From: Blastocatellia bacterium
Lineage (GTDB): Bacteria; Acidobacteriota; Blastocatellia; RBC074
Assembly: GCA_031409955.1 (NCBI GenBank)
Contig: JANNYF010000012.1
Span: 25,927-89,926 of the forward strand
Reading direction: 5' to 3'
DNA length: 64,000 bases
A model generated the notes under the pieces. That model was not told the DNA's origin. It saw only the letters and a program-made list of their open reading frames with translations, and made no database searches. Position numbers and translations under genes: made by a program. Shown here piece after piece: positions 18,008 to 54,475 of this stretch (its first letter is position 1; every line of letters begins with the position of its first letter).

Positions 18008-18141
18008 ATTGAACCTCTTAAATAATCTGCGAGCAGAGAAACTGAAATCGGAGCCAACAGCATCCGAACTCTAATACCGTCTTCCAGTCAGTGGAAGAAA
18101 AATTTCAATTCAAGACAGCTACGTGCGCCAGATGTGCCAGG

Positions 18142-26176: not shown

Positions 26177-27169
26177 ATGCAACGTATGACGAACAAACTC
26201 CCAACCTCCATCACCGAACACACCGTTTTACCGCTCATCGCCGCCCCCATGTTTTTGGTCTCTGGTGTCGAGCTTGTCACCGCCGCTTGTAAATCCGGCG
26301 TCATCGGCACCTTTCCTGTCCTGAACGCACGAACCAGCGAAGCGCTTGATGATTGGATGCAACGCATCACGAGCGATCTTGCGGCGGTGAAAGTAGCAGA
26401 CCCAAAAGCACGCATCGCCCCGTGGGGCATCAACCTCGTCACGCATCGCACGAACCCGCGCTTGCAACCGGATTTGGATTTGACGGTGAAATACCAAACG
26501 CCCATCGTCATCACTTCGCTCGGCAGCCCCGCGCCTGCCGTCGAAGCCGTGCATTCGTATGGCGGTTTGGTCTTCAGCGATGTCATCAACATCAGCTTTG
26601 CGAAAAAGGCTGCGCAAGCCGGGGTTGATGGCCTCGTGCTGGTTTGCGCAGGCGCAGGCGGACACGCGGGAACGCTGTCACCGTTTGCGTTTCTGAAAGC
26701 CGTGCGCGAATTCTTTGACGGCATCATCGTGTTGGCTGGCGCAATGTCCAGCGGGCGTGACATTCGCGCGGCGCAAGTTTTGGGCGCAGATTTGATTTAC
26801 TTCGGCACATCGTTCATCGCTACGACCGAAAGTCTGGCGACGCAGGACTATCAGCAAATGCTGGTGGATGCGACGATGGACGATTTGATTTACACGAACG
26901 CGTTCAGCGGCGCATACGCGAATATGCTCAAGCCGAGCATCGTCGCGGCGGGCATTGATCCTGCCACGCTCAAGCCGAAAGAATCCGTAGATTTCAGCCA
27001 TCTGGTCAGCGGCGAAACCAAAGCATGGAAGCACATCTGGTCAGCCGGGCAAGGTGTGAGCTTCGTGCGCGAGATTCAACCTACCGCCGAACTGGTTGCG
27101 CAATTGCGCCGTGAATATGCGGAAGTGGTGGCGGAAGAGCGGCGCGGCGATGCGTGGATGAATTTGTAA
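26177..27169 (+). CDS. Nitronate monooxygenase (NMO; 2-nitropropane dioxygenase-like FMN enzyme)
   Basis: LPLIAAPMFLVSGVELVTAACKSGVIGTF motif and TIM-barrel FMN-binding signature. Confidence 0.85.
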   Translation: MQRMTNKLPTSITEHTVLPLIAAPMFLVSGVELVTAACKSGVIGTFPVLNARTSEALDDWMQRITSDLAAVKVADPKARIAPWGINLVTHRTNPRLQPDLDLTVKYQTPIVITSLGSPAPAVEAVHSYGGLVFSDVINISFAKKAAQAGVDGLVLVCAGAGGHAGTLSPFAFLKAVREFFDGIIVLAGAMSSGRDIRAAQVLGADLIYFGTSFIATTESLATQDYQQMLVDATMDDLIYTNAFSGAYANMLKPSIVAAGIDPATLKPKESVDFSHLVSGETKAWKHIWSAGQGVSFVREIQPTAELVAQLRREYAEVVAEERRGDAWMNL

Positions 27170-31530: not shown

Positions 31531-34500
31531 CTAAAACTCGAATCTGCCCACCAACTGCACGATGCGCGGCGAGAAGGTGCCGCTGAATCGTCCAAACGTC
31601 GCGCTGTTGATGTCGAACATCGCGCCTGTCCCAGCTTGCGATGCGCCGCTCAAACTGAAGTTCGCGCGGTTCAGCACATTGAAGGCTTCGACGCGCAATT
31701 GCAGCCGCGTCGTTTCGGTCATCTGAATGTTCTTGATGATCGAAGCGTCCCAATTCAAATAGAGCGGGCCATTGATGAATGCGCGTTCCAACGTTCCGGT
31801 TTGACCGGGGCCGTTATTGAAGAACGCTTGTCCGGCGAACGCCGTCGAGCCTAAACCTTCTGCCGCCCGGCCTGTGCCAGCACAAGTCGTTTGATTCAGG
31901 TTGATGACCGACGGGTTGATGTAATACACGCCGCACGCCGTTTTGTGGATGCCGATCAAATCCTTGATCTGACTCTTCGACAGGTTAGTTTGCGGGGTTT
32001 GCCGACCCGAACGCGAGACGCGGTTGAGCGTGCCGCGCACGTCTACGAACGTGAGCGGCGCACCCGTGGCGATGTTCATGATCGAAGTCAGTTGGAACCC
32101 GCCAAAGACACGATTGATGGTTCCGCTGTGATTCAACCATTTCTTGCCATTGCCGAACGGTAATTCGTAAATCGCGTTGACGTTGAAGACGTGCGTTTGA
32201 TCGTAATCGGCGCGCGAATATTCCAACTCAGGCCGCGCGTTATCCAGGTTCGTATTGAACTTGAACTGATCCGTACCCGTCGCATTCGTCAGCACTTTTT
32301 GGAACGTGTAGTTGGTTTGGAAATACAAGCCATTCGAGAACCGTTTGCGCAACTCAATCTGCAATGAGTTGTAGTTGTACTTCCCGCCGTTTTCCAGAAT
32401 CGAGATCGTACCCGCGTTTTCATTGGCTCGCAGCGGCACTGTGCCCTGTAAACCATTTTGCACATAAGTCAGCAACAAGGTTTGTGGATCGCCTGCGCGA
32501 ATCGTATTCGCAATCGTTGCGTTCGTGAGCAAACCGCCCGCCGCAAACTTCGGAAAGACAGTCAAGGTCTGGCACCCTGCTGTCGTGCAGCCTGCATTGC
32601 CGGTCAACAGAAGATTGGCACGGGCGCGATTGAAATCGGCCAGAAAGCCGTTGGTATTCATGTCAAAGTTGTTGATGTCCAACCCGCGCGGCAGATTGTT
32701 GCTTTGCCCGCCGACATAGCGCACTTCGAGCGCGGTTTGGAATCCCAACTCGCGTTGAATGCCAAAGCTGTATTCGTTCGACCGCGCAATTTGATAGTTC
32801 GGATCAATCGCAAAGACTGCGCCAAAGTTGGCGGCAATCTGGTTGTTCTGCAAAAACGTGCGCGGCAATGCAAACGCAGGCGCGTTGATGGTCGGCACAC
32901 TGCCCAGCCGTGCGTTGAGGTTGGCAAGCGTGACGCCTGTGCTGAGTCCGGCGTTGGTTTGTTGCGAGGAATCCTGTGACCGCAAAATTTCATCGTTCAC
33001 ATAACTCATGCGGAAGCCACCGCGCACGACGGTTTTGCCGCCACTACCGAAAACACTGCTCAGGAATTTGTTTTGGAAATTCGGCGAGTATGCAAAGCCC
33101 AACACCGGAGCAAAATTGTTTTTGTCTGTCTTGTGCAGTTTGTTGTTGCCGTACCCGTTGATGAAATCCACTTTGCCGTTGGGATCAAGCACGGCTTGCA
33201 GCACGGTTTGCCCAGGCGCGATGTACGGCTCCAACGCCAGTCCCTGCTTTTCGCGCAGCGGCGTGTAGAGTTCGTAGCGCAAGCCCATCGTCAACGTCAG
33301 ACGCGGCGTCGCTCGCCATTGATCGGACAAATAGAGCGAATGCACATCGAACGCATAATCGAACGCGGCTGCCGCGCCGGACGAATAGCCAGACGTGCGC
33401 GTCGCTGCATTGAAGGTTTGCGTGCCTGTGCCGACGATGCCGCCGAGCAAGGCTAACAAACCATTCGCGGTTCCCAATTGTGCCGTGCTGATGCCGCCTG
33501 TGAAATTGCCTGCGATAAAGCTCGGCGTGTTCGTGTTCGTGCCTAACGTGAAGCGCGGGACGGTATCGAACTTCGCTGATGTGAAGTCTGTGACGAATTG
33601 CGATTGCCCGCCAAAGCGCAGCGCGTGATTGCCCCATTGACGTTCGGCGTTGTCCTGGAGGTTGTAATTGGCGGTGTCGCGGCCTTGCTCTTGCTGATTG
33701 ACTTCGGGATTGTTGATGAGCGGGAGCGTCAAATAAAATGCGGGTTCCGCTTTGACGCGAGCGAAGAACGGATCGCTCAAAAACGCGCCGCTGCGCAATT
33801 CGTTGGTGAACGTTGCGCTCGGCGTCCAGCGCCACGCAACCGAGGTGAATTTGCGCGTCGAAGGCTGCACAATCGTCGGCGTGGATAAGTATCCCGAAGG
33901 GCTGTCCACGTCCGGGCGATCATTCACCTTTTCGTTCGTGTAACTCAGCACGCCGCTGACCGTGTGTTTGTCGCTGACTTCGTAATCGAAGCGACCCGTG
34001 TATTTGTCGGTGTCGGTATTGCTGCGTTGATTGAAGCGATAGCCCGTCGTGTTGCGTTGATCGCCACGATCTACGGCATTGCCAACCGCAGGGACGTTCG
34101 CCAGAATGCGGCTGCTGACAATGGGGTCAATGCCGGGCAGCCCCGCGTTGCCGAGCAATGTAAACAGATTCACAGTGCGCAAAACGGGGCCACCATTGGC
34201 TGCCGTCGTGTTGTCGAGGTAGGTGAAATTTCCGAGCCGTGCGCTCGGCGTCAGAATCGTGCGGACTTGCGTGGATTGCGTGCGTGTTCGCAAGCCTTCG
34301 TAAAAGCCAAAGAAAAACAATTTGTTCTTGATGATTGGGCCGCTGATTTTGCCGCCGAATTGATTGCGATTGAGAAAGGCTTTCGCTGTCCCGCTCGCGT
34401 TATTGAAATAGCGATTCGCCGCGAACTCCGAATTGCGATTGTAGAGTTGTGCGCTGCCGTGAAAAGCGTTCTGTCCGCGCGGCGTCACGAATTGGACTTG

Positions 34501-35178
34501 CGATGCGCCGTAGCCTAATTCTGCTCCCGCATTCTGCGTCGTCAACGTGAATTCGCTGACGTCATCTACGTTCGGGCGTTCGACCGAAAAGCTCGAAGCG
34601 TTGGCGCGAATGTGGTTGTCCTGAATGTTGATGCCGTCGCGTGTGATGTTCGTGAAGGTCGGGCGCTGACCATTGATTGATGTGCCTTGCGCGCCGTTGG
34701 ACGCGGTTCCGGCTTGCAGCAAAATCAAGCTTGTCGGGTCGCGCCCGTTGAGCGGCAGTTCGACGATTTGGCGCGGGCTGACGGTGTTGCTGATTTGCGG
34801 GTTCGTGGCGTTGAGCAAATCCGCGCCCGCCGTGATGGTCACGCTTTCCGCCGCCAGACCAATTTCCAGCCCCACGTTCAGCGAGTATTCCTGCCCAATA
34901 TCAATCTTGACGTTTTTCGCGTTGAAGGTTTTGAAGCCGTTCACGGTGACGGTGACGTTGTACGCGCCGGGATCAAGTTGCGGCAGGAGGAACGCGCCTT
35001 CGCCGTTCGACGTAATGGTGCGTTCTTTGCCCGTTTGATTGTCCGTGACCTTCACGGTTGCGCCGGGCAACACGCCGTCCGGCCCTGACACCGTGCCGAT
35101 CAAGCGACCTGTGTTAGACTGCGCAATGGCTGCTGCAGTGAGCAACAGCAGCATTGCAAAGGAGATGATTTTCTTCAT
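31531..35178 (-). CDS. TonB-dependent receptor-like OM protein with CarboxypepD_reg N-terminal domain
   Basis: Signal peptide, GTVSGPDGVLPGATVKVTDNQTGKERTITSNGEGAFLLPQLDPGAYNVTVTVNGFK, about 1215 aa, C-terminal F. Confidence 0.85.
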   Translation of the reverse strand: MKKIISFAMLLLLTAAAIAQSNTGRLIGTVSGPDGVLPGATVKVTDNQTGKERTITSNGEGAFLLPQLDPGAYNVTVTVNGFKTFNAKNVKIDIGQEYSLNVGLEIGLAAESVTITAGADLLNATNPQISNTVSPRQIVELPLNGRDPTSLILLQAGTASNGAQGTSINGQRPTFTNITRDGINIQDNHIRANASSFSVERPNVDDVSEFTLTTQNAGAELGYGASQVQFVTPRGQNAFHGSAQLYNRNSEFAANRYFNNASGTAKAFLNRNQFGGKISGPIIKNKLFFFGFYEGLRTRTQSTQVRTILTPSARLGNFTYLDNTTAANGGPVLRTVNLFTLLGNAGLPGIDPIVSSRILANVPAVGNAVDRGDQRNTTGYRFNQRSNTDTDKYTGRFDYEVSDKHTVSGVLSYTNEKVNDRPDVDSPSGYLSTPTIVQPSTRKFTSVAWRWTPSATFTNELRSGAFLSDPFFARVKAEPAFYLTLPLINNPEVNQQEQGRDTANYNLQDNAERQWGNHALRFGGQSQFVTDFTSAKFDTVPRFTLGTNTNTPSFIAGNFTGGISTAQLGTANGLLALLGGIVGTGTQTFNAATRTSGYSSGAAAAFDYAFDVHSLYLSDQWRATPRLTLTMGLRYELYTPLREKQGLALEPYIAPGQTVLQAVLDPNGKVDFINGYGNNKLHKTDKNNFAPVLGFAYSPNFQNKFLSSVFGSGGKTVVRGGFRMSYVNDEILRSQDSSQQTNAGLSTGVTLANLNARLGSVPTINAPAFALPRTFLQNNQIAANFGAVFAIDPNYQIARSNEYSFGIQRELGFQTALEVRYVGGQSNNLPRGLDINNFDMNTNGFLADFNRARANLLLTGNAGCTTAGCQTLTVFPKFAAGGLLTNATIANTIRAGDPQTLLLTYVQNGLQGTVPLRANENAGTISILENGGKYNYNSLQIELRKRFSNGLYFQTNYTFQKVLTNATGTDQFKFNTNLDNARPELEYSRADYDQTHVFNVNAIYELPFGNGKKWLNHSGTINRVFGGFQLTSIMNIATGAPLTFVDVRGTLNRVSRSGRQTPQTNLSKSQIKDLIGIHKTACGVYYINPSVINLNQTTCAGTGRAAEGLGSTAFAGQAFFNNGPGQTGTLERAFINGPLYLNWDASIIKNIQMTETTRLQLRVEAFNVLNRANFSLSGASQAGTGAMFDINSATFGRFSGTFSPRIVQLVGRFEF

Positions 35179-35350: not shown

Positions 35351-38300
35351 TTAGAACTTCAGCCGCAGCGCGAATTGAATCAGACGCGGATTGCTGCTGA
35401 AGACCAGATCGGGTTGATTGAATTGCGCCCGCCCGACGGTGTTGACGTTGCCCACCGCCTGCGTGGCAATCGGGACGACGCTGTTCGGCGTGCCGGACAC
35501 GTATTGCGGATGATTCAAGCCATTGATGAAATCTGCGCGGAATTGCAGCTTCTTCGTTTCCGTCACGGCAAAGTCTTTCGAGAGCGAAAAATCAATGTTG
35601 TTGATGGCAGGCAATGCCAGCGTGTTGCGCCCCGCCGTCGCACGCGCACCCAAGCCTGCTTGAATGTATTGCGCGTTCGGATTGGTGGCTAAGTAGCCCA
35701 CTGTTTTGCCTGCCGTATTCGTCAGCGCCGTCACCAAACTGGAAGTGTTTTTCACGCCATTGGTGTTGATGATCGAACGATCTCCGGCGGCGTCGCCATT
35801 CAGGTTGGCGTCAACGCCGCTCAGCACCGTGACGTGTTCGCCGGATTCATAACTGAACGTTCCCGCGAAGCTGAATCCACCGAACAACGACCGCGCCAGG
35901 CGATGACTGCTCTTGGCAAAAAACGGAAGGTCGTAGATGCCAGAGACGGCGAGACGATGACGATGATCGAGAATTGAATTGGCCTTCTCCGCCCGCATGT
36001 TTTGGAAGTCTTGCGCCCGGCGCGGGGCCAAGACTGTGCTGAAAACCTCGGCGGTCGAATCGTCAATGTTGTGGCTCCAGGTGTAGGCCGCATTCGCCAA
36101 AAATCCGCCTGTGAATCGTCGCGTCAAGGACGAAGAAAATGCGTGATAGGTCGAGCTGCCATTCGAGACAAACGCCACCACGTTCGCGCCATTGAAACCC
36201 GCATTGGCATAAGCCGGCACAAAGCGCGAGCGCGGGTTGATCGTGTCTTGCAACGTGACTGTCAACCTGTCTAAATCTGCTTGCGCAGGTCTCGACAAGT
36301 ACGTGGGAAGGAAGATCGTGTCGGTAGTTTTGGGCTGCACGTTCAGGCGATTCTGCGTGGGCAAGTGAACGCCGCGTGTGCCGAGATAGCGCGTTTCCAG
36401 CGACCAGTTGGTTAAGAACTGGCGCTGAATGCTCAGGCTGTATGACATCGCGTAGGGAACTTGTTGATTGTCTACCCACGCGCTGGTCGCGGCGCGTGCG
36501 GCTGCCGCTGAAGTTGCGGTGGCTGGCACGACGTTGTGAATCCCGCCATTCGCCAGGAAGTTGTTGATGTCAGGCGTCGCCGGGATGTTGACTGTGACCT
36601 GCGCTTGCGGCGGACTCGACAAAATATAGAGGTTGTCTACGATCACATCGTAGGCCATCGAGAAGCCCGCGCGAATCGAACTCTTGCCGCCGGAACCAAA
36701 CAAGAAACCCAGTGGGCCGGAGTCATAATTCGGCGCATATACCAAGCCGATACGCGGCCCGAAATTCTTCTTCTGCGCGGTGGGTGCGCCAAATTCAATC
36801 AGTCCCGGCACGTTGGAAATGGCGTTCAGTTTTTGCAAGCTCGCGCCGAACGGCACTTGCTGATAGACGTAGTTCACGCCCGCATTCAGCGTCAGGTTCG
36901 GACGCATCCGCCATTCGTCTTGCCCAAAACCGAAGAACAGAATTTGGTCGCCGTAATACTTCGACGCGCCCACGTTGCGCTCGGCTAAAAAGTCAGGATT
37001 CAAATCGCGCAGGAAGCGATCTGTCGTGTTGTATTGATAATCGCCGCGCTCGCGTTGCACGAAGGTTTGCGGCGAAATGCTCTTGCGCACATCCGCGCCA
37101 AACTTCAACGAGTGATTGCCCGCGAGATAGGAAATGTTGTTGATGAGTTGATAGTTGTTTTCGGTGTTGTACTGCGGCCCGTTTGGATCGGGGCCAATAT
37201 CAATGCCCAAATCTTTCAGCCCGACATTCGGAAATGAGTCAAACCCAGCGATGGGGAATTTGGTATCGGGGATCGAAACGTCATTTACAAAGCGACGATA
37301 GGACAGGCGCATTTCATACGTCAGCTTCGGCGTGAAGGTGTGCAGGAAGGTGTAGGAAAACAAACGACCATCGGTCGGGTTCAGGAAGAAGAACGCAGGC
37401 AGCGTGGCATTGTTGTCAATCGCGCGCAGACGGTTGTACGTGAAGCGACCGCGATGCTGTGTTTTCTCGCTTTGCGTGTAATCCAGATTCAGCACGAAGT
37501 TGCGCTGATTCGTCCAATTCGGCGCGTCGAACGAAATATTGCCGACCGGAATGTTGACGCCATTCACGGCAATCGTTCCGGCATCATTGGTCGGCGCGGT
37601 TGGCACATATTGTTTGAAGAGCGCGAGGTTGGGGGCAGAGAGTCCCGCGATGCGATCCAGCGCCGCGAAGCCTGCGGCAGTGGGCGAAGTCAGACCCGCC
37701 GGAGCGGCTGCGTTGCCGATGCCCAAACCTTCGTAGCTGACAAAAAAGAACAGGCGATCTTTGCCGTTGATGATCGGGCTGCCGCCTGTGCCGAAGCGCG
37801 GCAGATGCAGCGGGCCGCCGATGTTGCCGCCGTAGCGAGCGAAATCGTAACGCGGCATGAACGTCGTGCCGGGCGCATTCTGTTCGCGCACGACGCCCGC
37901 GTTTTTCTGCGTGGTATCAAGCGCGTTTAGGTAACGATTGCGGAAGAAGCTGTACAACGTGCCGTGATATTCATTGCCACCGCTTTTGGATGCGACGATG
38001 AATTGGCCGCCCGTCGAACGCGCAAACTCGGCAGCGAATTGATTGGTCAAAATTGAAAACTCGGAAACTGTTTCCGGCGACACATAAACGGCGGGGCCGG
38101 AGATGTCTTTGCGGTTGTTATCAATGCCATCCACGACAAAGTTATTGTTGCGCGGACGTTGCCCACCGACCGAACCGCCCGTGCCTAAACCGAGGCCGCC
38201 GCTGCCCGTGACGTTCGGCGCTAACAAGGCCAGGTTGTAAATACCGGAACTTGCGGAGTTCGCCGTGGTAATAGACGTTTGAGGAAGTTCGACGACTTGC

Positions 38301-38734
38301 CGGGAATTGAACCCTTTCGACAAATTCGTGGTGGTGGTTTGGATTAGCTCTGCACCTTCCGCCGAGATTTCGACGGTTTCTGTTTGAATGCCGACTTGTA
38401 ACGCGACGGGCACGTCGGTCGTTTGATTCAAGCCCACGCGGACATCGCTCAAGGTCAGCTTTTTGAAATTGGCTGCCTCGATGGTGATCTGGTAATCGCC
38501 CGCCAACAAGTTATTGAAGCGGAACTCGCCATCGCCGCTAGATTCGGCGGTCACGGTATGGCTGGTCTTGCGATCCGTGATGCTGATTTTGGCGCCGGGG
38601 ACAATCGCGCCGCTGGGGTCTTTCACGATGCCGCGCACATTGCCGGTGGTTTGCTGTGCCAGCACCGGGCAGAGAAGAGAGATGAGTAAGAGAAGTAAGG
38701 TTGTGACTTGCGTCATTGGCGATAGTTTTTTCAC
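35351..38734 (-). CDS. TonB-dependent receptor-like OM protein with CarboxypepD_reg N-terminal domain
   Basis: RBS aaggag. Signal peptide. GIVKDPSGAIVPGAKISITDRKTSHTVTAESSGDGEFRFNNLLAGDYQITIEAANFK. About 1127 aa. Confidence 0.85.
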   Translation of the reverse strand: MKKLSPMTQVTTLLLLLISLLCPVLAQQTTGNVRGIVKDPSGAIVPGAKISITDRKTSHTVTAESSGDGEFRFNNLLAGDYQITIEAANFKKLTLSDVRVGLNQTTDVPVALQVGIQTETVEISAEGAELIQTTTTNLSKGFNSRQVVELPQTSITTANSASSGIYNLALLAPNVTGSGGLGLGTGGSVGGQRPRNNNFVVDGIDNNRKDISGPAVYVSPETVSEFSILTNQFAAEFARSTGGQFIVASKSGGNEYHGTLYSFFRNRYLNALDTTQKNAGVVREQNAPGTTFMPRYDFARYGGNIGGPLHLPRFGTGGSPIINGKDRLFFFVSYEGLGIGNAAAPAGLTSPTAAGFAALDRIAGLSAPNLALFKQYVPTAPTNDAGTIAVNGVNIPVGNISFDAPNWTNQRNFVLNLDYTQSEKTQHRGRFTYNRLRAIDNNATLPAFFFLNPTDGRLFSYTFLHTFTPKLTYEMRLSYRRFVNDVSIPDTKFPIAGFDSFPNVGLKDLGIDIGPDPNGPQYNTENNYQLINNISYLAGNHSLKFGADVRKSISPQTFVQRERGDYQYNTTDRFLRDLNPDFLAERNVGASKYYGDQILFFGFGQDEWRMRPNLTLNAGVNYVYQQVPFGASLQKLNAISNVPGLIEFGAPTAQKKNFGPRIGLVYAPNYDSGPLGFLFGSGGKSSIRAGFSMAYDVIVDNLYILSSPPQAQVTVNIPATPDINNFLANGGIHNVVPATATSAAAARAATSAWVDNQQVPYAMSYSLSIQRQFLTNWSLETRYLGTRGVHLPTQNRLNVQPKTTDTIFLPTYLSRPAQADLDRLTVTLQDTINPRSRFVPAYANAGFNGANVVAFVSNGSSTYHAFSSSLTRRFTGGFLANAAYTWSHNIDDSTAEVFSTVLAPRRAQDFQNMRAEKANSILDHRHRLAVSGIYDLPFFAKSSHRLARSLFGGFSFAGTFSYESGEHVTVLSGVDANLNGDAAGDRSIINTNGVKNTSSLVTALTNTAGKTVGYLATNPNAQYIQAGLGARATAGRNTLALPAINNIDFSLSKDFAVTETKKLQFRADFINGLNHPQYVSGTPNSVVPIATQAVGNVNTVGRAQFNQPDLVFSSNPRLIQFALRLKF

Positions 38735-38798
38735 GATAACACTCCTTTGAAGGGGAAACTGATGTTGTCAATTGGCTTCATCCAAACGACAGACAAGG

Positions 38799-38812
38799 GC
38801 AAGTGATGTGCC
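38799..38812 (-). promoter_or_regulatory. Candidate sigma-54 (-24/-12) promoter for the TonB receptor gene at 38734
   Basis: Minus strand reads aGGCAC-atcac-TTGCc, i.e. a GG-N10-GC spacing exactly matching TGGCAC-N5-TTGC. About 65 nt upstream of the ATG. Confidence 0.4.
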
Positions 38813-38941
38813 TCAGTGCCTTGGATTCCCGTCAACTGATTGCAATGGAAATGGCTTAGCGGAGAAATCGGAAATTGGCGGGGTATAGATTTCGCAGCAG
38901 AATAAACAGGACTTTATAAAAAATAATTTGTACTGAAGGAG

Positions 38942-38962
38942 AAATCATATTCGATATGATTT
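38942..38962. promoter_or_regulatory. Palindromic putative operator AAATCATAT-tcg-ATATGATTT in a divergent promoter region
   Basis: 9-bp perfect inverted repeat with a 3-nt centre, located between the divergent TonB receptor and the winged-helix regulator gene. Confidence 0.3.
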
Positions 38963-39027
38963 TCTGAGTGGTTATTGAAACCTCTGTAGTGCTTCGATCA
39001 CTCACCGTATACAGATTGATGGAATCG

Positions 39028-39056
39028 AGAAAACCGAAGAAAAACCGAAGAAAAAC
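39028..39056. promoter_or_regulatory. 11-bp tandem direct repeats (aGAAAACCGAA GAAAAACCGAA GAAAAAC), candidate winged-helix (OmpR-type) binding site
   Basis: Seen in the sequence about 145 bp upstream of the regulator ATG. OmpR/PhoB-type domains typically bind direct repeats with about 11-bp periodicity. Confidence 0.3.
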
Positions 39057-39198
39057 ATCTGAACTTTTTTGTTAATAGATACGTTCTCGAAAACGTCCAT
39101 ACAACTGAACTCACACCGCTGTGAACTAATTCATAAGATCGAATAACCCCTCACGTCTACGGCGCAGAGACGTGACCAATGTTCTAAATCCAAATCTC

Positions 39199-41478
39199 AT
39201 GCAGAATCCAAACCGACATATTTATTCTTTTGGTCAGTACTCCGTGGATGTTGCCGAGCGCCAATTATTGCGGGCTGGAGAGAGCGTTGCGCTGCCGCCG
39301 AAAGTCTTCGATACGCTGTTGGTGTTGGTGGAAAACTGCGGTCGCATTCTGGAAAAAGATGTGCTGATGAACAAAATCTGGCCCGACAGCTTTGTCGAAG
39401 AAAGCAGCCTGGCACAGTACATTTTTCAATTGCGAAAAGCCCTCGGCGATGACGCGTCAGAGCATCGCTTCATCGAAACAATCCCGAAACGCGGCTATCG
39501 TTTCATCGCGCCCGTGCAAGCAGAACTTGGCACGCCCACCCCACTTTTACACGCGCACGGCAGCGCGGTTGTGACGGCGGAATATTTACCGCAGACGACA
39601 CCGCTTGTTGCTATCGCTATGCCAACGGTTCCCGTGCGGACGAATTTCAGGTCGCCGCTCAAATCTTTCACCGCTGCCCACAGCCCCAGTTCGTCACTGG
39701 TTCCGTTCCAGTCCAAATGGCGGCTCATCAATACTGGTTGGGCGGCGATGATGAGTGTGACAGTGTTGGCTGCGCTGATCGTGGGCGGAATTTGGCTGAC
39801 CAGAAATTACGCCGATGCCCGAATTACACCAACTCCCGTGCAAATTACCAAGCTGACTTCGACCGGGCGCGCCATTGCTCCCGCGATTTCGCCGGATGGC
39901 AAATATGTGATCTACATTGCCGATGATCTGGGCAAACAGAGCCTGTGGATTCGGCAAACCGAAACGCTCAGCAATGTCCAAATCCTGGCCCCCGCCGATG
40001 TGTCGTTTCAGGGGCTGACGTTTTCGCCCGATGGCAATTATTTGTATTACGTCATTTACAAAATGCCCAAGCATATTGGCGTTTTGTATCGCGTGCCGAT
40101 TTTGGGTGGCACGTCACAAAAAGTCCTGGAAGACGTTGATACCGCCATCACCTTCGCGCCCGATGGCCAACGGTTCGCTTTCGTCCGGCAATATCCGGCG
40201 ACGTTGGAAACAGCGGTCGTCATCGCCCAAACCGATGGCAGTAACGAACAAAAATTGGCGACGCGCAAATCGCCCAAAATGTTTGCGATTGATGGGTTGT
40301 CGTGGGCGCCGAATGGAGAGCTGATTGCCGTGGCCAGCAGCAACACCGGAGCCACCGGCCCCAGCATGCAATTGGTCGGCATTCGCGTCAAAGATGGCGG
40401 CGAAGAATGTCTCAGTGCCAAAGCCTGGGGCAATCTGAAACAGGTCGTGTGGCGCAACGATGGGCGCGGCTTGATGGTGATTGGTTGGCAACAGTCCGCC
40501 GCCGTGATGGCCAATCAAATTTGGTACATCCCGTATCCCGACGGCGAACCCCGCCGCGTCACGAATGACCTCATCAATTACAGTGGCTTGAGCCTGGCGG
40601 CAGACACCGGCAAAGTCGTGACTACGCAATCCACCAAGGTTTCGCGGATGTGGCTGGTGCCGGAAAATGATGTCGCACAGGCGACGCAAGCGGCTTCGGT
40701 GGGCATTGATAATTTCAGCGAGAAGTTGGGGCTGAATTGGTTGTCGAATGGGAAGCTGATTTATGGTTCGCGCGCCAGCGGCAATGCCGATCTCTGGTTG
40801 ATGGATGCCGATGGGAACAACCAAAAACAATTGACGGTAGACACCACTTTGGAAGGCCAGCCCACTGTGACTGCCGACGGACGCTACATTGCGTTCTTAT
40901 CGAATCGCGCCGGGACGTACAACATCTGGCGGATGAATGCCGATGGCTCGCACCTACAACGATTGACGAACGGTCCGTGGGAAAATACGCCGAGCTTTTC
41001 GCCCGATGGAAAATGGATCGTCTACAACGGCGTGTTTCAGGAAAAGCCCGTGCTATGGAAGATTCCGGCAGAGGGCGGAACCCCGGTGCGCTTGACGGGC
41101 GATGTTTCGATCCGTCCGGCAGTGTCGCCCGACGGCAAAATGGTGGCGCATTTGCACCTGGATGCGCAATCCCAGCGGATGAAATTGGCGGTGGTTCCGA
41201 TGGAAGGTGCATCGCAAGTCAAAATGTTCGCTACCAGCATTCCCGAACCCCATATCGTGAATTGGAGTCCTGACGGTCGGATGGTCACGTATGTGGACAC
41301 GCACGACGGCGTTTCCAACATTTGGGGACAGCCGTTGGATGGCTCGCCCTCCAAACCGCTGACACATTTCAAGAGCGATAATATTTTCCGCTTTGCCTGG
41401 TCACCGGATGGCAAAAAGCTGGCGTGCGAACGTGGCTTTTATATCAACGATGTCGTGCTGATTAGCAACTTCTCCTGA
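39199..41478 (+). CDS. Winged-helix (OmpR/PhoB-type trans_reg_C) DNA-binding domain fused via a TM segment to a TolB-like (PD40/WD40-like) beta-propeller
   Basis: YSFGQYSVDVAERQLLRAGESVALPPKVFDTLLVLVEN...IWPDSFVEESSLAQYIFQLRKALGD...ETIPKRGYRFIAP, then repeated SPDGK/FSPDG propeller blades. ATG at 39199 is preferred over GTG at 39172. Confidence 0.8.
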   Translation: MQNPNRHIYSFGQYSVDVAERQLLRAGESVALPPKVFDTLLVLVENCGRILEKDVLMNKIWPDSFVEESSLAQYIFQLRKALGDDASEHRFIETIPKRGYRFIAPVQAELGTPTPLLHAHGSAVVTAEYLPQTTPLVAIAMPTVPVRTNFRSPLKSFTAAHSPSSSLVPFQSKWRLINTGWAAMMSVTVLAALIVGGIWLTRNYADARITPTPVQITKLTSTGRAIAPAISPDGKYVIYIADDLGKQSLWIRQTETLSNVQILAPADVSFQGLTFSPDGNYLYYVIYKMPKHIGVLYRVPILGGTSQKVLEDVDTAITFAPDGQRFAFVRQYPATLETAVVIAQTDGSNEQKLATRKSPKMFAIDGLSWAPNGELIAVASSNTGATGPSMQLVGIRVKDGGEECLSAKAWGNLKQVVWRNDGRGLMVIGWQQSAAVMANQIWYIPYPDGEPRRVTNDLINYSGLSLAADTGKVVTTQSTKVSRMWLVPENDVAQATQAASVGIDNFSEKLGLNWLSNGKLIYGSRASGNADLWLMDADGNNQKQLTVDTTLEGQPTVTADGRYIAFLSNRAGTYNIWRMNADGSHLQRLTNGPWENTPSFSPDGKWIVYNGVFQEKPVLWKIPAEGGTPVRLTGDVSIRPAVSPDGKMVAHLHLDAQSQRMKLAVVPMEGASQVKMFATSIPEPHIVNWSPDGRMVTYVDTHDGVSNIWGQPLDGSPSKPLTHFKSDNIFRFAWSPDGKKLACERGFYINDVVLISNFS

Positions 41479-42694: not shown

Positions 42695-44794
42695 TTACTG
42701 CTCGCGTCTGAACGTATAGCGCAGCAAGACAATATGATTTAGTGAAGAATGGCCGGAGGATTTGGAGGCGATATATTCAACCAGCAGGTTGGGGCGCAAC
42801 CGCCAGCCAATCCCGACATCGGTGAAATTGTCGATAAACCGTTCTTGCGTGCGACCATTCGGAACGAATTTGCCATAGCTATTGAGCAGCCGGCCAAACC
42901 GATCTGGAAACAGGTTCTCATCCGTCGTGCGTCGTTGCCAACTCGTCAGCGATGAGACGCTGATGAACATCTGCCGCCAGACATCCGTTTGCGCCGCCAT
43001 GTGCAAAGACGTGAAGCGCAGCCGCTGTTGTTTGTCTTCGATCTGATTGCCTGTTGCATCTTCAAACAACCGATCATGAATGTGGATTGATCCGATTGCG
43101 ACATCCACCCCAAACACCGTGCGCGGGCGTAGCGCGTAGCCGAGACCGCCGCTGATGGCAGTGCGGTGAATGTGTTCACGTTCGTTGGCATTCACGATGG
43201 AAAAGCGGCGGAGTTGTTCGGTCAAGCCGACGTGCAACCACGAAGCATCTACGCCATAAAACAATTTGCGCGTGACCAGTCCGCGCAATCGCAGTCCCAC
43301 TTCTTTTGTCTGCGCGCTAAACCGCACGGCATCCGGTGGCAGCGCCGAACCATTGAACCGGCGGGCTTGGTCTCGATCTTCGGCGCGTGTCACGCCGTGG
43401 CGGTAGAAAACGCCAAGCTTCTGGCTTGTGCCAAATTCGCGCGTGAGGCCGAAACGAAGGCGAGAGCGTTCGACCCAGGCGCGCGCTGTTAACTCTTCAA
43501 TAGATTTTGCTCCCAGCACATTCGTCAACGTCGTCAGACTTTGCAGGTTACTCACGCCGCTGGTGTGATCTACGCTAATGCCGACGCTGGTGCGACCGCT
43601 TTTGCCAAACTGCCGCGCAGCTAAGAGCGACGCCGAAAAGTTCGTTACGTCGGTACTCGCCGCGCCCGTGCTGACGCCCGGAATGCCGGTGGGATAGGCG
43701 GGCGTGACTGCGCCGGTAATCGGCGCGCTCAAAAATGTGCCGAGCGTGCTGTGCGCAGCGCCAACGCTCCCGCCCAATACCGTGCGCTTTTCTGCATTCG
43801 TGCGAAGCGGGGTGAAGAAGGTGGTTTGAAACAGCAACCCGCTGTCATTCGGAGCCGTGAGGTCAGAGCCAAAGACCAGCGAATTCTCGGCCTTCATATT
43901 GGCTTTGCTCCACGAGGGCAGGAGCGAAAAGCGCCCTTCCCTCTGACGAAACTCGGTGGCATACGCGGGGTTTTCGAGGCTGTCAAAATGCGAATCGGGA
44001 AACGCCAGGAAGCGCAAGAAGGGCGGGCTTTCGCCCGGTTCAACGACGCTGTCAATGTAGCGTTCGTAATCGCCCGCCAGATTGCGCCGCACATCGTTGG
44101 GCGTGTTCGCACTGCTCACGCCGTTCGCTCCGGCAGCATTGCTGTTGCGATGGCTCTCATCGCGGCTGCCACTGGGGCTGCGATCTCCGATTTCGCTGCC
44201 CGGCCCCGTCACGAAAAAGCGAATATCACCAGTGAGGGGAACGATCAAACCGCGTCCCGGTTGCACCATTGCTCGTTGCGCATTCGCCACGCTCACGACT
44301 TCGACTAAACCTTCATACACGATCACCTCCGTCTCACTCGTTGCCTCGACCGCAACGCTGAATTCTGTTCCCCGCACAAGAATAGAAGCCGAAGGACTAT
44401 TGACGCGATACGGATTCGGTTTGTTGCCGTAATGGTTGATTTTGACGCGGACGCGTCCCACCAGAACTTGCAATAATTCCCGCAGCGTGGGGGCATTCAG
44501 ATAATCCCGAATCACGATGCGGGAGTTCGGCTGCACCGTCACCACGCTGCCGTCGCTCAACTGAATCACGAGGCGCCCGTTGCCGGTCGTGATTTCGTCA
44601 CCCGGTTGCAGCACATCGCCTTTCGCTAAAGAAAAACTGCGTTGCTGGCTGAAGCGCAGCGCGCCGCCGCTCGTGCTGGCAATGCGCGCTTCGACCGCTT
44701 GTGCCTGCACGGAGAGGCAACCGAAGGGCGGAGCGGCGCAGCAAAGCACCGCCATCAGCATTCGTCTCAGCCAGCGCAGATCAGCACTCGTCAT
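42695..44794 (-). CDS. FecR-domain protein with C-terminal outer-membrane beta-barrel-like region
   Basis: Signal peptide. FecR-like fold ([37 protein letters not shown]...VRGTEFSV). Long beta-strand-rich C-terminus ending in an aromatic residue. ATGA overlap with the upstream response-regulator gene. Confidence 0.65.
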
Positions 44795-46229
44795 TCCTCG
44801 TCCTCCCCATTCTCAACGAAGTCAAAGCCCTCGCCTTCCGGTTCCACCATTTGATTGAGATTATGCCGCGCGATCAGGCGCTGCACAGTGCGCCGATTCA
44901 AGCCCAGCAACGTCGCCGCGTGCTGGCGATTGCCTGCGGTGTGCGTCAACGCGGCTACCAAATACCGTCGTTGTAATTCTTCCATCGTGGGCCAATCCGC
45001 AGCCAGTTGCCGCAATGCCTCCGCCGGGGCTGCTGTCTGAACCGGACTGATATGAGACGGCAAGCACAGCGGCGTAATCATCCCATCTGTAGTCAGCGCC
45101 GCCGCTCGTGTCAGCGCGTTTTCCAATTCCCGCACGTTGCCGGGGAATGACCATTGACACAGCAAATCCAGTGCATCGCGGGAAATATGCAAAGGTTTGG
45201 TTTCGCGGCTCAGGCGGTGCAGAAAAAATTGCACCAGCAGTTCGACATCGCCCGTGCGTTCGCGTAGCGGTGGCAGGTGGATCGTCAAAACGCTTAGGCG
45301 GTAATACAGATCAGCACGGAACGATTTCTGTTCCGCCAACTCGCGCATATCCTGATTGCTTGCGCCGATCACGCGCACATTTACGCGGCGTGTCTGCGTC
45401 GCGCCGACGCGTCGCACTTCGCCCGATTGCAGCACGCGTAACAAACTCGCCTGAAAAGACGAACTGGTCGAGGCGAGTTCATCCAGAAACAATGTCCCAC
45501 CGTCTGCCGCTTCAAATAGGCCGATGCGATCCGTGTTCGCGCCTGTGAACGCGCCGCGCATGTGGCCGAATAATTCTGCTTCCAACAGCGTGTCGGTTAA
45601 GCCTGAACAATTGACGGCGATGAAAGGCTTTTGTTTACGTGGGCTGAAATCGTGGATGGCGCGGGCGGTGACTTCTTTGCCCGTGCCGGATTCGCCGGTA
45701 ATTAAACGGTCGCATCCGTGCGCGCGGCCTGTGCTACTAATTTGTAGACCTGCACCATTGCCGCGCTACGCCCCACAAAACCACTGCGCGCGGAATCGGG
45801 CTGTGCATCTGGCGACGGTTGTGCATCCACTTCTTGCTGCGCATTTATGTAGCGGTGCAATAATGTGGTCAAGGCTTCGACTTCAAAGGGTTTGGCAATG
45901 AAATCGGTGGCACCTTCGCCCACCGATTGGACGGCCAAATCTACGGAGCCTTGCGCGGTCATCAAAATAACGGGGATGTCGCTGGAGAGTTGGCGCAGTT
46001 CTTGCAACAACGTTAGCCCATCGCCATCCGGCATATAGACATCCGTGATGATGCCATCGAACTTGATCGTTTGTGCGATTGCTAAGGCTTCGCGTCCGCT
46101 CCGTGCGCAAGTGATCTGAAACCCGCTCAGGGTGAGGCTGGTTTCCAGCATCAGCCGAATGAGCCGATCATCGTCTACGACCAGAATGTGCAGTTGTTTC
46201 TTGGACATGGTTATGAGTATCTGATTCAT
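44791..46229 (-). pseudogene. Sigma-54-dependent response regulator (NtrC family: REC + AAA+ sigma54-activator + Fis-HTH) interrupted by a single-nucleotide frameshift
   Basis: REC domain (ILVVDDD...DGIITDVYMPDGDG...) runs into ...AARTDATV then a TAA at 45702-45704. The -1 frame continues [35 protein letters not shown]...[15 protein letters not shown]...HTH in frame with ORF 44791-45585. One missing T in a T-run (GTTTAATT vs GTTTTAATT) would restore the frame. Confidence 0.7.
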
Positions 46230-46344
46230 TATAGCGGGCGAAGATGAACGCTGAATTAACCCGATTCACCGCAACTTTTGAGATCAAGAGCGGAGCGGCA
46301 TTCTCGGTCAATCGAGAGCTTCCATCTCACACAACCCCTCACGT

Positions 46345-48789
46345 TCACCCAGCATTTTGTTGCTCGTTGTTGAGTGGGAGCCGGAGCGTAAACGTTGATC
46401 CGACCCCGGTCACACTTTCGATAATGACGCGCCCGCCGTGTAATTCGGCGACTTCGCGCACCAATGCCAAACCCCGTCCTGTCCCCGGCGTATCAGCATC
46501 TTCAATGCGTGGGACGCGGAAGAATTTTTCAAAGACCCGCGTGCGATAATTCGGCGGAATGCCGTAGCCCTGATCTCTGACCGAAAGCAAAATCGTCTCG
46601 CCTTCGATTTTCGCCGTGACGGAAATTTCAGTTTTTTCCGGGCTATACTTGATGGCATTCGAGGCCAGATTCGTCACGGCGCGTGCGAGCAAATCTGCGT
46701 CTGCCAGCAGCGGCGGAAGATTCGGTGCAAAGTCGCGTGTCATCGTGATGCGTTTGTGCTGTGCGATAGGGTCAAGCAACAAAAGCGTTTTTTCGATCAG
46801 GGTTTCCAATCGCACGTAGTCCATTTTGAGCGCGCGTGCACCCGATTCCAGCCGCATCAAATCCAGATACTCATCAATCATGCGGCGCAATCGTTGCGTG
46901 GCTTCCTGAATCGCTTCGTGCATTTCGCGGCGTTTTTCTGGCGCGGGATCGAACTTCATTAGCACTTCGCTCATGCCTTGAATCGCGGTCAGCGGCGTTT
47001 TCATTTCGTGCGTCACCAACAGCATTACATCGGTTTGCATTTGCTGTAACTCACGCTGTTTCGTGATGTCTGACAGCGAGACAACAATGCCTGTTGGGGC
47101 TTCGTCCGGCTGGCGAATCGCGGCCATTCGTAAGAGGAAATGACGCGGTTGCGGCGTTGCAATCGTGAATTCACGCTCAATGCTCGCCCGCTCTTCAAAC
47201 AAGCGCCAAAGCGTCCCTTTTTGAAGCTGCATCACTTGTAATTCATCCGGTTGTAGTTGCCCTGTTTCCGCGACCGTCAAGCGCGCGAATAAATTGCTCC
47301 CTGCTAAATAGTGCTCCGACGTATTGAAAATGTTAGCGGCGCGCGGATTCGCGTAGACGATGATTCCGTTCGCATCCGTCATCAGCAAGCCGTCTTCTAC
47401 CGATTGGAGCGCCTGATCTACAAATTGTGTGCGCGCCATCAATCGCGTTTGCAACTCAGCCAAGGCGCGGGATTTGTCTTCGAGACGGCGCGGCAATTGT
47501 AACCGCGTCGAGGAATCAGTTTTGAGTTTGAAAGGGGAAAGTCGTGCGCTTTGTTGAATCAGCTCGCCGATGCGTTGATCCAACTGCGTGCTGGCGGACA
47601 ATGTGCGGTGGAGTAACGTCAAAGGCGTCGCAATGACCAATGAAATCAGGGCTGGAACCAGTGGCAGCACAATCAACCAGCGCGTGAAAACAAAATAGGA
47701 TGCCAATAAAATCAGCGCGGCGAGGAAGATCACCACGCCAAGTTGTTTGAGGATTTCCCAACGCCCCTGCGCCAGTCGTAACCCGCCGACCACCGCCGCC
47801 GCAATTAGCGCCGCAAACAGCGCGGCAAACCCATCGGAGGAAGGCTGATAAAATCGTTGTTGCAAAATCGTCGTGACTGCATTCGCTAACACTTCAACGC
47901 CGGGCATCAGCGTTCCATGCTGATTGCCGTCATCTGTCGCAAAGCGCACAAAAGGTGAAGCAACGCGATCTCCCATTGCCGCCGCTGTTGCGCCAATCAA
48001 TACATACTTGCCCTGCAATTTTTCCGGCGTAACGTTTCCGTCAATGACATCTGCGATGCTGTAGGTATGTGCGGCGAAAGTACCAGCCGGGCCGCGATAA
48101 TCAATCGTCATGCGGGCGGCGCGGATGCGTTCGGTCATTTGTTCAGATGAAGCAATAGCAAGGGTCGGCGCTTCAAACGTGACCGGAATTGTGCGGGAGC
48201 CAATGTTGACAGACTCCGGCAGTTCGCGGACTTCATTGCGCGGCGTGCCTTGACCAACGCGCACCATCTCAACCGCCAGCGCCCAAAACGATTGCCCTTC
48301 GTCATCCGTTGCGCGCAAGCCCAACCCGCGCGCGACGCCATCGTAATCGGTCAAGACATTGCCGTGTCCCACTCCGGCGGCAGCTTGCTCGATAGCAAGT
48401 AAGGGACGCGCCCATTCCGCACCTTGCCCTGCTGTCTCGACCAACTGCGCCGTCACCACCACCTTGCCTGCGCGTTTGATGGCAGCAGCTAACGCGGCAT
48501 CATCGGCTTCGTTGGTGGGATCACTGTAGAGGACACTTAGTGTGACGGCTTTTGGTTGCGTGGCGGCAATGCGATCCAATGCCTGCGCCATGATCTGACG
48601 CGACCAGGGGAAGCGTCCGAAGCGTTTGATGCTGGGTTCATCAATCGCCACCAGCACAACTTCATCCGGGGCTGACAATTGGCCCCGCGCCCGCACCAGA
48701 CTATCCTGTGCCAATAAATTCAGGCCGGGCAACCGCCACGACCCAGCATTGCCAGGATCGTGGCCAGCACGATGATGACAAGTCCCCAA
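46345..48789 (-). CDS. CHASE2-domain sensor histidine kinase (CHASE2, TM segments, PAS, HisKA, HATPase_c); N-terminal TM helix encoded in a different frame (48720-48827)
   Basis: CHASE2 region (LNLLAQDSLVRARGQ...VVLVAIDE), TM cluster, PAS-like region, HEMKTPLTAI H-box, and GTGRGLALVREVAELHGGRVIIESVTGVGSTFTL G-boxes. An upstream ATG at 48827 encodes MSNSPLHLRQPRFWGLVIIVLATILAMLG (the expected leader TM helix) but stops after 35 codons, out of frame with the main ORF. Confidence 0.75.
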   Translation of the reverse strand: MGTCHHRAGHDPGNAGSWRLPGLNLLAQDSLVRARGQLSAPDEVVLVAIDEPSIKRFGRFPWSRQIMAQALDRIAATQPKAVTLSVLYSDPTNEADDAALAAAIKRAGKVVVTAQLVETAGQGAEWARPLLAIEQAAAGVGHGNVLTDYDGVARGLGLRATDDEGQSFWALAVEMVRVGQGTPRNEVRELPESVNIGSRTIPVTFEAPTLAIASSEQMTERIRAARMTIDYRGPAGTFAAHTYSIADVIDGNVTPEKLQGKYVLIGATAAAMGDRVASPFVRFATDDGNQHGTLMPGVEVLANAVTTILQQRFYQPSSDGFAALFAALIAAAVVGGLRLAQGRWEILKQLGVVIFLAALILLASYFVFTRWLIVLPLVPALISLVIATPLTLLHRTLSASTQLDQRIGELIQQSARLSPFKLKTDSSTRLQLPRRLEDKSRALAELQTRLMARTQFVDQALQSVEDGLLMTDANGIIVYANPRAANIFNTSEHYLAGSNLFARLTVAETGQLQPDELQVMQLQKGTLWRLFEERASIEREFTIATPQPRHFLLRMAAIRQPDEAPTGIVVSLSDITKQRELQQMQTDVMLLVTHEMKTPLTAIQGMSEVLMKFDPAPEKRREMHEAIQEATQRLRRMIDEYLDLMRLESGARALKMDYVRLETLIEKTLLLLDPIAQHKRITMTRDFAPNLPPLLADADLLARAVTNLASNAIKYSPEKTEISVTAKIEGETILLSVRDQGYGIPPNYRTRVFEKFFRVPRIEDADTPGTGRGLALVREVAELHGGRVIIESVTGVGSTFTLRLPLNNEQQNAG

Positions 48790-51028: not shown

Positions 51029-51411
51029 ATCATTAACTCCTCGTTTATGAAAAATAATTTCAGGGGATTGAGAGGAAGCCTGTCGGTCTCGGCAGTCTCC
51101 TCTCGCAGTGCCGCTGCATCTGTGAACGGCACTACTCTCTTGGGCAAACCTGATGCCAGAGGTGATGATTCGCTAAGCTCTTGATTTATAAGGTGGTGCC
51201 GTGACCAAAGGAGTGACAGGCCAGTGAGAACTGCGACTCTGTGCCGCGTCTTGGCGGAGAGTGGTGCGGCAATTTGCCGCCGTTCCTTCTACTGGCGATT
51301 CAAGGCAAATTTTACGAAAAATTGAGATGGGGTTCCTGTCAATCTAACCTGCCGAATGGTATAGTCTGCCTCTCTCAAACGACTAACAACCAACCAGCAG
51401 GAGCAACCCAA

Positions 51412-54018: not shown

Positions 54019-54475
54019 GGAACATGTAAAAAATAACTTGTCACAACGGACAGGCGACTGGAGCAGGCGACTGGAGCGCAAGCGTCCCGCATGCCGAGCG
54101 CGCCCGAGCGTCGCTCGCCTACGTGCTGAGGGAATCTCTTCAACTTCGGCAGATTCCCTCACCAAATGATCTGCTTCGCTATCGCTTGCAAATGGCAAGC
54201 GGGGACGCCCCGCGCTCCAGTCTGACAAGCCATTTTCTTACCTCCCGATCCCACCGACAGCGACTGAACCTCGAATCCGTTTTTGGGACGACTGCTTCCC
54301 GAAAGCGGACACTGTTGATGGCTCACACCTGAGCGATCAACCCGCGCCAATTTGCCACGAGGCTCTATTGACACACCGTTGCGCGAAGCTCGCCAACCCC
54401 TACCCCATCCATTCATGACTGGCACGCTGTTTGATTTACCTCACTAGAAACATCACAAGGAGTGTCATCAATTTT

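Follow-up and report, generated by a model that had tools for sequence, protein, structure and literature searches.

The minus-strand element aGGCACatcacTTGCc at 38798..38813 of the 64,000-nucleotide stretch of DNA that was analysed as a whole (the window) is best explained as a functional sigma-54-type -24/-12 promoter of a large receptor gene, and from the comparison of related loci we consider this explanation probable. The sigma-54 promoter had been proposed in the original prediction and was upheld: the site does not vary among orthologues, it is directional, and motifs of its kind are enriched upstream of receptors of this family. The promoter interpretation draws its support from this conservation among orthologues and in the family, and not from the quality of the motif. 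For the window taken alone, the outcome is an ordinary promoter annotation together with the correction of an over-extended circuit model.

The -24/-12 element and its conservation

On the minus strand the motif reads aGGCAC-atcac-TTGCc (38812..38799; window sequence there ccaaggcactgaGGCACatcacTTGCccttg), with GG at 38812-38811, GC at 38800-38799 and a spacer of 10 nt (38810-38801) that makes the GG-N10-GC spacing exact. It is intergenic and points at the gene of receptor 1, the C of the promoter GC lying 65 nt from the first base of that reading frame (38734). The coordinates, the spacing and the distance of about 65 nt to the receptor start had been given correctly and could be read directly from the sequence. 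The start codon had been taken as an ATG at 38734; the actual codon at this position is GTG, with AAGGAG in front of it (ribosome-binding site AGGAG, 38746-38742).

Receptor 1 (1127 aa, 35351..38734, minus strand) consists of a CarboxypepD_reg domain and an OMP_b-brl_4 barrel, and the exact protein was also present in Logan assemblies. Receptor 2 (1215 aa, 31531..35178, minus strand) belongs to the same family, and the pair is conserved in the loci L001, L003-L007 and L009. The 172-bp gap between the two genes holds no sigma-54 motif scoring at least 9, and receptor 2 is probably co-transcribed with receptor 1. Both proteins fall into a 22-strand TonB-dependent barrel family (PF25183, E-values of 9e-122 and 6e-143 in the two receptors), PF00593 matched receptor 2 alone and below its cut-off, and the Pfam search of both returned CarboxypepD_reg and barrel families only, with no STN domain. 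No solved structure was related to the receptors by sequence. The arrangement of CarboxypepD_reg followed by an OMP_b-brl_4 barrel in more than 1000 aa resembles the Oar-type proteins of Myxococcus, from which the pair differs in its plug domain (PF07715), which gave no match in receptor 1 and in receptor 2 reached only 18.9 bits, the cut-off being 23.9. A third member of this receptor family (1258 aa) is encoded at 7443-11219 (plus strand); the 79-bp gap upstream of it has no sigma-54 motif, and it is probably co-transcribed with the preceding gene for a 773-aa protein.

The original prediction had described the promoter as being of consensus quality, which overstates the match. The core GGCAC-N5-TTGC is matched at nine of nine positions, but T(-26) is replaced by A and position -11 is C, and T(-26) is missing from the promoters of all the orthologues too. 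On a sigma-54 matrix that is an approximation made from the published consensus, the site scored 11.3 out of 18.5, a value that 12 mostly intragenic sites of the window reach or exceed. GGCAC-N5-TTGC was found once on the two strands of the window (128 kb of strand), with 1.17 occurrences expected from shuffles, and TGGCAC-N5-TTGCW with up to two mismatches was found 45 times, with 45.8 expected. The motif sequence taken alone is no better than chance or background. By position, five of the 32 matches scoring at least 10, the flagged site among them, are intergenic and precede a gene by no more than 300 nt; such promoter-eligible positions make up 3.8% of strand positions, and about 1.2 matches were expected in them.

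When species-representative genomes were scanned with receptor 1, 80 loci were obtained, and by its closest relatives the organism was judged to be an acidobacterium of the Blastocatellia. Eight Blastocatellia loci with upstream sequence and 77-90% protein identity formed the orthologue set and, with the window, gave nine aligned intergenic regions. GGCACA.C..TTGCC was invariant in all nine, with four different spacers among them (ATCAC, ATCGC, AGCCC and ATCCT), an essentially unalignable 20 nt on each side, and a distance from promoter to ribosome site that varied from 47 to 63.

The motif was also assessed in the wider family. Among 66 non-orthologous homologues with 38-61% identity, 34 had a forward motif scoring at least 10 within 400 nt upstream. 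The identical matrix gave matches on the reverse strand of only two of the same 66 upstream regions, and in 10 of the 182 intergenic regions that served as controls and precede other genes at the same loci (8 if two receptor genes are removed), or about 5%. The difference between homologues and controls was pronounced (Fisher p ~4e-16), bearing in mind that the family matches were picked by an approximate matrix and that the loci are mutually related, so that the counts are not fully independent. TTGC was present in all 34 matches, many of which are near-perfect (for example TGGCATCCGGCTTGCA and TGGTACGGGGTTTGCA), and their median distance to the start codon was 136 nt. These results bear directly on whether the flagged match might be a product of chance without function. 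The window counts equal the shuffle expectation and many intragenic sites score as well, as chance would have it, but the conservation of the island in nine sequences, the fixed phasing of an upstream palindrome (described below) and the family-wide enrichment make such an explanation scarcely credible.

The same data speak to readings of the island that do without a promoter for the receptor. GGCA and TGCC are reverse complements, and the island could thus be a palindromic operator, GGCA-N7-TGCC, of a dimeric regulator, or a small RNA hairpin; alternatively it could be a sigma-54 promoter on the opposite strand, directed toward the divergent regulator gene, the reverse reading TGGCAAGTGATGTGCC scoring 11.9 in some orthologues. 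However, two conserved pairs of bases, the CA that follows GGCA and the TT that precedes GC, break the symmetry and fit the sigma-54 consensus, and 22 of the 34 family matches carry A or T at position -11, which destroys the symmetry. The 4-bp stem of a hairpin is too weak and shows no covariation. Reverse-strand matches are rare in the family (two of 66 regions), and in the window the reverse reading scores only 9.1 and would lie 387 nt from the regulator start. We regard this group of readings as very unlikely.

Two further conserved sigma-54-type sites in the window, at 51143-51158 and 54420-54435 (both described below), were counted in favour of the promoter reading. An activator gene with the GAFTGA motif is present in the window, and many intact relatives occur in Blastocatellia, which implies that the lineage uses sigma-54. 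A search with an approximate E. coli RpoN query gave no rpoN in the sequence searched, which included only 64 kb of this genome, so that the negative result is uninformative.

Upstream sites and the divergent regulator

The original prediction had suggested a search of 38850-39000 for upstream activator sites, and a candidate was indeed found there. It is a conserved 23-bp palindrome, (G/A)AAATCATAT-N3-ATATGATTTC, at 38941..38963, centred about -165 from the inferred start, whose arms (also written GAAATCATAT-N3-ATATGATTTC) are perfect over 9 bp (38942-38950 and 38954-38962). The palindrome was present in all orthologues, and its centre lies 138-140 bp from the GG in nine of nine sequences; this fixed phasing ties it to the promoter, as expected of an upstream activator site. 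The window has no other palindrome match with fewer than three mismatches, and the palindrome was not found in the distant homologue loci, being specific to the orthologous group. A scan of public metagenomes with GAAATCATA-N5-TATGATTTC for members of a regulon or for the activator returned 68 matches, none with a properly placed sigma-54 motif or in a locus resembling this one. They came mostly from low-GC contigs and from a high-GC group of one metagenome, where the site stood near contig ends.

Between palindrome and promoter lies an invariant AT-rich block on the minus strand (ACAAATTATTTTTTATAAA, or ACAAATTATTTTTTATAA, 38913..38931), which extends over about -126 to -144 relative to the inferred start. 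In 17 of its 18 columns (38931-38914) eight or more of the nine sequences agree, and the block may serve as a second activator site, as a bend or as a site of the neighbouring regulator. Closer still to the promoter is a partly conserved CAA-N4-TTG (38833..38842, minus strand, about -46 to -55), of which AGTTG at 38837-38833 is conserved in the alignment. This is only the weak core of an IHF site; the full consensus WATCAANNNNTTR was found neither at this position nor anywhere between palindrome and promoter. No Rfam family, riboswitch or other known RNA was found in the intergenic region or the leader.

The palindrome and the AT block are conserved at least as well as the -24/-12 island itself, and the regulator gene is the one conserved neighbour. 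Both facts would suit a working promoter of sigma-70 type in or next to these two elements (38912-38963), controlled by the CadC/ToxR-like regulator or by a Fur-family repressor, with GGCAC..TTGCC merely part of a long leader; metal-responsive repressors commonly control outer-membrane receptors. Read as a 7-1-7 arrangement, TCATATC-G-AATATGA, the palindrome matches the Fur/Zur/PerR type at five of seven positions per half-site. The Fur/Zur box was rejected on this partial match and on its wrong distance from any promoter, and there are no metal-related genes nearby. A simple consensus scan of 38600-39300 found no sigma-70-type promoter or hexamer pair and no terminator-like site. Furthermore, the fixed 138-140 bp between palindrome and GG would be unexpected if the two were unrelated, and the directional enrichment of -24/-12 motifs in palindrome-free loci of the family would be left unexplained. 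A sigma-70 promoter is, for these reasons, an unlikely source of receptor transcription.

Under the preferred reading, the element at 38812-38799 would serve as an enhancer-dependent (sigma-54) promoter for receptor 1 and probably for receptor 2. By the established mechanism of sigma-54, we infer that the polymerase would form a closed complex at the site, that transcription would start near 38787 with a leader of about 53 nt, and that an AAA+ activator bound upstream would be needed. The best candidate site for this activator is the palindrome at 38942-38962, with the AT block about 30 bp on its promoter-proximal side. The activator itself is probably encoded elsewhere, and probably is not the product of the nearby frameshifted NtrC-type gene discussed below.

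The layout can be compared with well-known promoters of this kind. At E. coli glnAp2 the NtrC sites lie near -140 and -108, about three helical turns apart. The receptor promoter is like glnAp2 and the Pseudomonas Pu promoter in its GG-N10-GC core of GGCAC and TTGC, in a palindrome about 140 bp upstream at fixed distance and in a leader of typical length, and it is like glnAp2 in having a second conserved block about three helical turns nearer the promoter. Unlike these two, it lacks T(-26), has C at -11 and has no full IHF consensus between palindrome and promoter. Its conserved neighbour, moreover, is not an AAA+ activator, of which none is encoded beside the target, but a winged-helix protein anchored in the membrane.

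This neighbour, the divergent regulator (759 aa, 39199..41478, plus strand), has an N-terminal winged helix (Trans_reg_C, with partial matches to CadC and HilA), a hydrophobic segment at about aa 181-200 and a TolB-like PD40 propeller. The layout fits the ToxR/CadC-like class, the membrane segment (WAAMMSVTVLAALIVGGIWL) having been judged by eye alone. The gene is kept in divergent orientation beside the receptor in all close orthologues with enough sequence, and a gene for a 297-aa protein is likewise conserved. Transmembrane transcription regulators of the ToxR/CadC type form a described class (PMC10269533), which the protein resembles in its N-terminal winged helix, single membrane segment and periplasmic sensor, and in a gene that adjoins its presumed target. 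It differs from that class in that the sensor is a TolB-like PD40 propeller and that the presumed target has a sigma-54-type and no recognisable sigma-70 promoter.

About 150 bp upstream of the regulator gene and near its own promoter, a perfect tandem 11-bp direct repeat (AAAACCGAAGA twice, 39030..39051) forms a candidate winged-helix site. The repeat is kept in the five 86-90% orthologues with upstream sequence and not in the 77% group. Tandem direct repeats are a geometry typical of winged-helix dimers. The regulator probably binds in the receptor intergenic region, the AT block and the 11-bp repeats being the candidate sites. Winged-helix regulators of this class normally work with sigma-70 polymerase, and by the established mechanism such a protein cannot itself open a sigma-54 complex. 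Most likely the regulator would supply a second, local input at the AT block, the 11-bp repeats or both, modulating either the receptor promoter or its own gene.

The NtrC-type activator, CHASE2 kinase and FecR-domain genes

The original prediction had coupled the receptors to an activator, a CHASE2 kinase and a FecR-domain protein encoded nearby. These genes were located as it had said, at 42695-48789, in a convergent four-gene unit beyond the gene for the 297-aa protein that encodes a DUF5666 protein, a CHASE2-PAS histidine kinase, an NtrC-type activator and a FecR-domain protein. The further proposal, that the receptors belong to a Fec-like circuit rewired through sigma-54, did not survive the comparison of loci: the unit is not beside the receptor in relatives, it has a promoter of its own, and its activator gene is frameshifted.

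The activator gene (44791..46229, minus strand) encodes a receiver, a sigma-54 AAA+ domain with GAFTGA and an HTH_8 domain. Its frame is broken by a 1-nt deletion at about 45702, in a T run of the minus strand (45690-45710), where GTTTTAATT has become GTTTAATT with the loss of one T. The break falls directly before Walker A (GESGTGKE), with no start codon between the two. Intact relatives of the activator have 465-491 aa, the closest (82% identity) 472-491 aa. The identical split was present in the Logan contig L151 (SRR20217191_125253), which is 100% identical over 11 kb and probably derives from the same population, so that it is not an independent check of the frameshift. The gene is either a pseudogene or carries an assembly error shared with SRR20217191_125253. 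Programmed frameshifting at GTT-TAA was judged unlikely on sequence grounds.

Intact copies of the unit exist in relatives, where the activators have 465-479 aa and the downstream neighbours differ. In the sister MAG GCA_964631865.1 it is on contig 109 and the receptor orthologue on contig 53, with PmbA/TldD genes in the receptor's place. Conversely, the flanks of up to 6 kb of the eight orthologous receptor loci contain no FecR, CHASE2 kinase, DUF5666 or activator gene, the genes beyond that for the 297-aa protein being unrelated. The unit is headed by a sigma-54 motif of its own, TGGCATCAGGTTTGCC (51143..51158, minus strand), which is absent from the original prediction, with a score of 12.2 outscores the flagged one, and is conserved as TGGCATAGACCTTGCC in L152 and TGGCATCGGGTTTGCT in L157. 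Sixteen nucleotides upstream of it stands an exact IHF consensus (AATCAAGAGCTTA, 51174..51186, minus strand), also kept in L152 and L157. With its own conserved sigma-54 promoter and IHF site, the obvious target of the unit is itself.

The receptor promoter might nonetheless be real and be activated by this neighbouring response regulator, driven by the CHASE2 kinase. The window has no other activator gene, this one lies 6-7.5 kb away, and a 17-mer links the two regions: AAATTATTTTTYATAAA (minus strand; AAATTATTTTT(T/C)ATAAA) occurs in the window only at 38913-38929 and 51044-51060, with 0.03 occurrences expected from shuffles, and both copies are in sigma-54 promoter regions, one in the receptor AT block and the other in the leader of the activator operon. 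In GCA_964631865.1, in addition, GAAATCATAAT is found both in the operon leader and in the left arm of the receptor palindrome of that genome. The 17-mer pair itself is not maintained in this sister genome, however, and we therefore do not take the 17-mer as evidence of co-regulation. The receptor palindrome is absent from the promoter region of the unit, the unit is beside the receptor in no orthologous locus and on a separate contig in the sister MAG, and the activator is interrupted before Walker A with no rescuing start codon. Control of the receptors by this activator is on these grounds unlikely.

The label Fec-like could not be retained either. The likeness to FecA-FecR-FecI lies in an outer-membrane receptor near a protein with the FecR Pfam domain. 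In contrast to that system, an STN domain is missing from the receptors, no ECF sigma gene or sigma-70 family domain was seen among the annotated genes of the window, and relatives do not keep the FecR-domain gene next to the receptor. The protein with the FecR domain carries a signal peptide, scored 20.9 bits on the FecR equivalog model against a cut-off of 385, and finds its best matches in LipL45 and Lsa33 of Leptospira. Judged from its sequence features, it is a secreted LipL45-like protein and not an anti-sigma factor.

Sigma-54 motifs in the receptor family and elsewhere in the window

Acidobacteriota, which are abundant in soil, encode these receptors in very large families, and to our knowledge almost nothing is known of how the receptors are regulated. 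No paper that connects sigma-54 with acidobacterial receptors turned up in full-text literature searches. A -24/-12 motif before about half of the sampled Acidobacteriota Oar-like receptors is perhaps the broader point worth following, the family-wide enrichment suggesting a general rule for the control of nutrient uptake in the phylum. The conserved promoter with an upstream site at fixed distance offers a concrete handle, and a motif for genome scans.

Some of the homologue loci have an activator gene adjoining the receptor, sometimes with a kinase as well, and all five of the sampled non-orthologous receptors with a winged-helix neighbour also carry a sigma-54 motif. It is conceivable, if doubtful, that sigma-54 is the predominant switch for the expanded Oar-like receptors of Acidobacteriota and that here a CadC/ToxR-like sensor, not a neighbouring AAA+ activator, supplies the local input. 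If that were true, a transmembrane one-component regulator would feed an enhancer-dependent promoter as a co-activator, as an anti-activator or as the recruiter of a distant activator.

A common upstream palindrome was sought among the distant homologues with adjacent activators, and no shared site was found. In L075, L078 and L014 the sequence (A/G)TTATCCAAAT(C/T)C(G/A)GCAA stands once or twice in front of distant receptor homologues, some 100-130 bp before their sigma-54 motifs, where an activator of another subgroup of receptors may bind.

The original prediction had also named a weaker match upstream of the first ADOP permease gene, at a distance of 45 bp. The motif is present and conserved as proposed; its extent is 54420..54435 (plus strand, TGGCACGctgtTTGAt, or TGGCACGctgtTTGA), and the distance to the true permease start (ATG 54476) is 41-42 nt. 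At -12 the C is replaced by A. The 87% orthologue (L159) retains TGGCACG-N4-TTGA, its spacer differing at three of the four bases, the 70% ADOP orthologue (L161) has CGGCACG-N4-TTGG, and the motif is missing from a 71% ADOP relative. Upstream of it, a palindrome-like block, TTTGGGAC-N8-TCCCGAAAGCGGACA (54283..54313, plus strand), is a candidate activator site. This block (GGGAC-N8-TCCCGAAnGCGGACA) is conserved about 90-140 bp upstream of the motif in the window and in the 87% and 70% orthologues. We take the ADOP motif, too, as a probable sigma-54 promoter, one whose -12 box is atypical.

Directly before the start codon of the ADOP relatives in L160 (2930-3000) and L161 (1140-1200) there is a run of GGACAAA heptamers, which is missing from the window. 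Two more sigma-54-like sequences in the window are intergenic and on the minus strand: TGGCACATCTGGCGCA at 18124-18139 is oriented to a gene for a 438-aa Cu2_monoox_C/cytochrome c protein, and TGGCAGGATCAATGCC at 26951-26966 to a gene for a 233-aa hypothetical protein.
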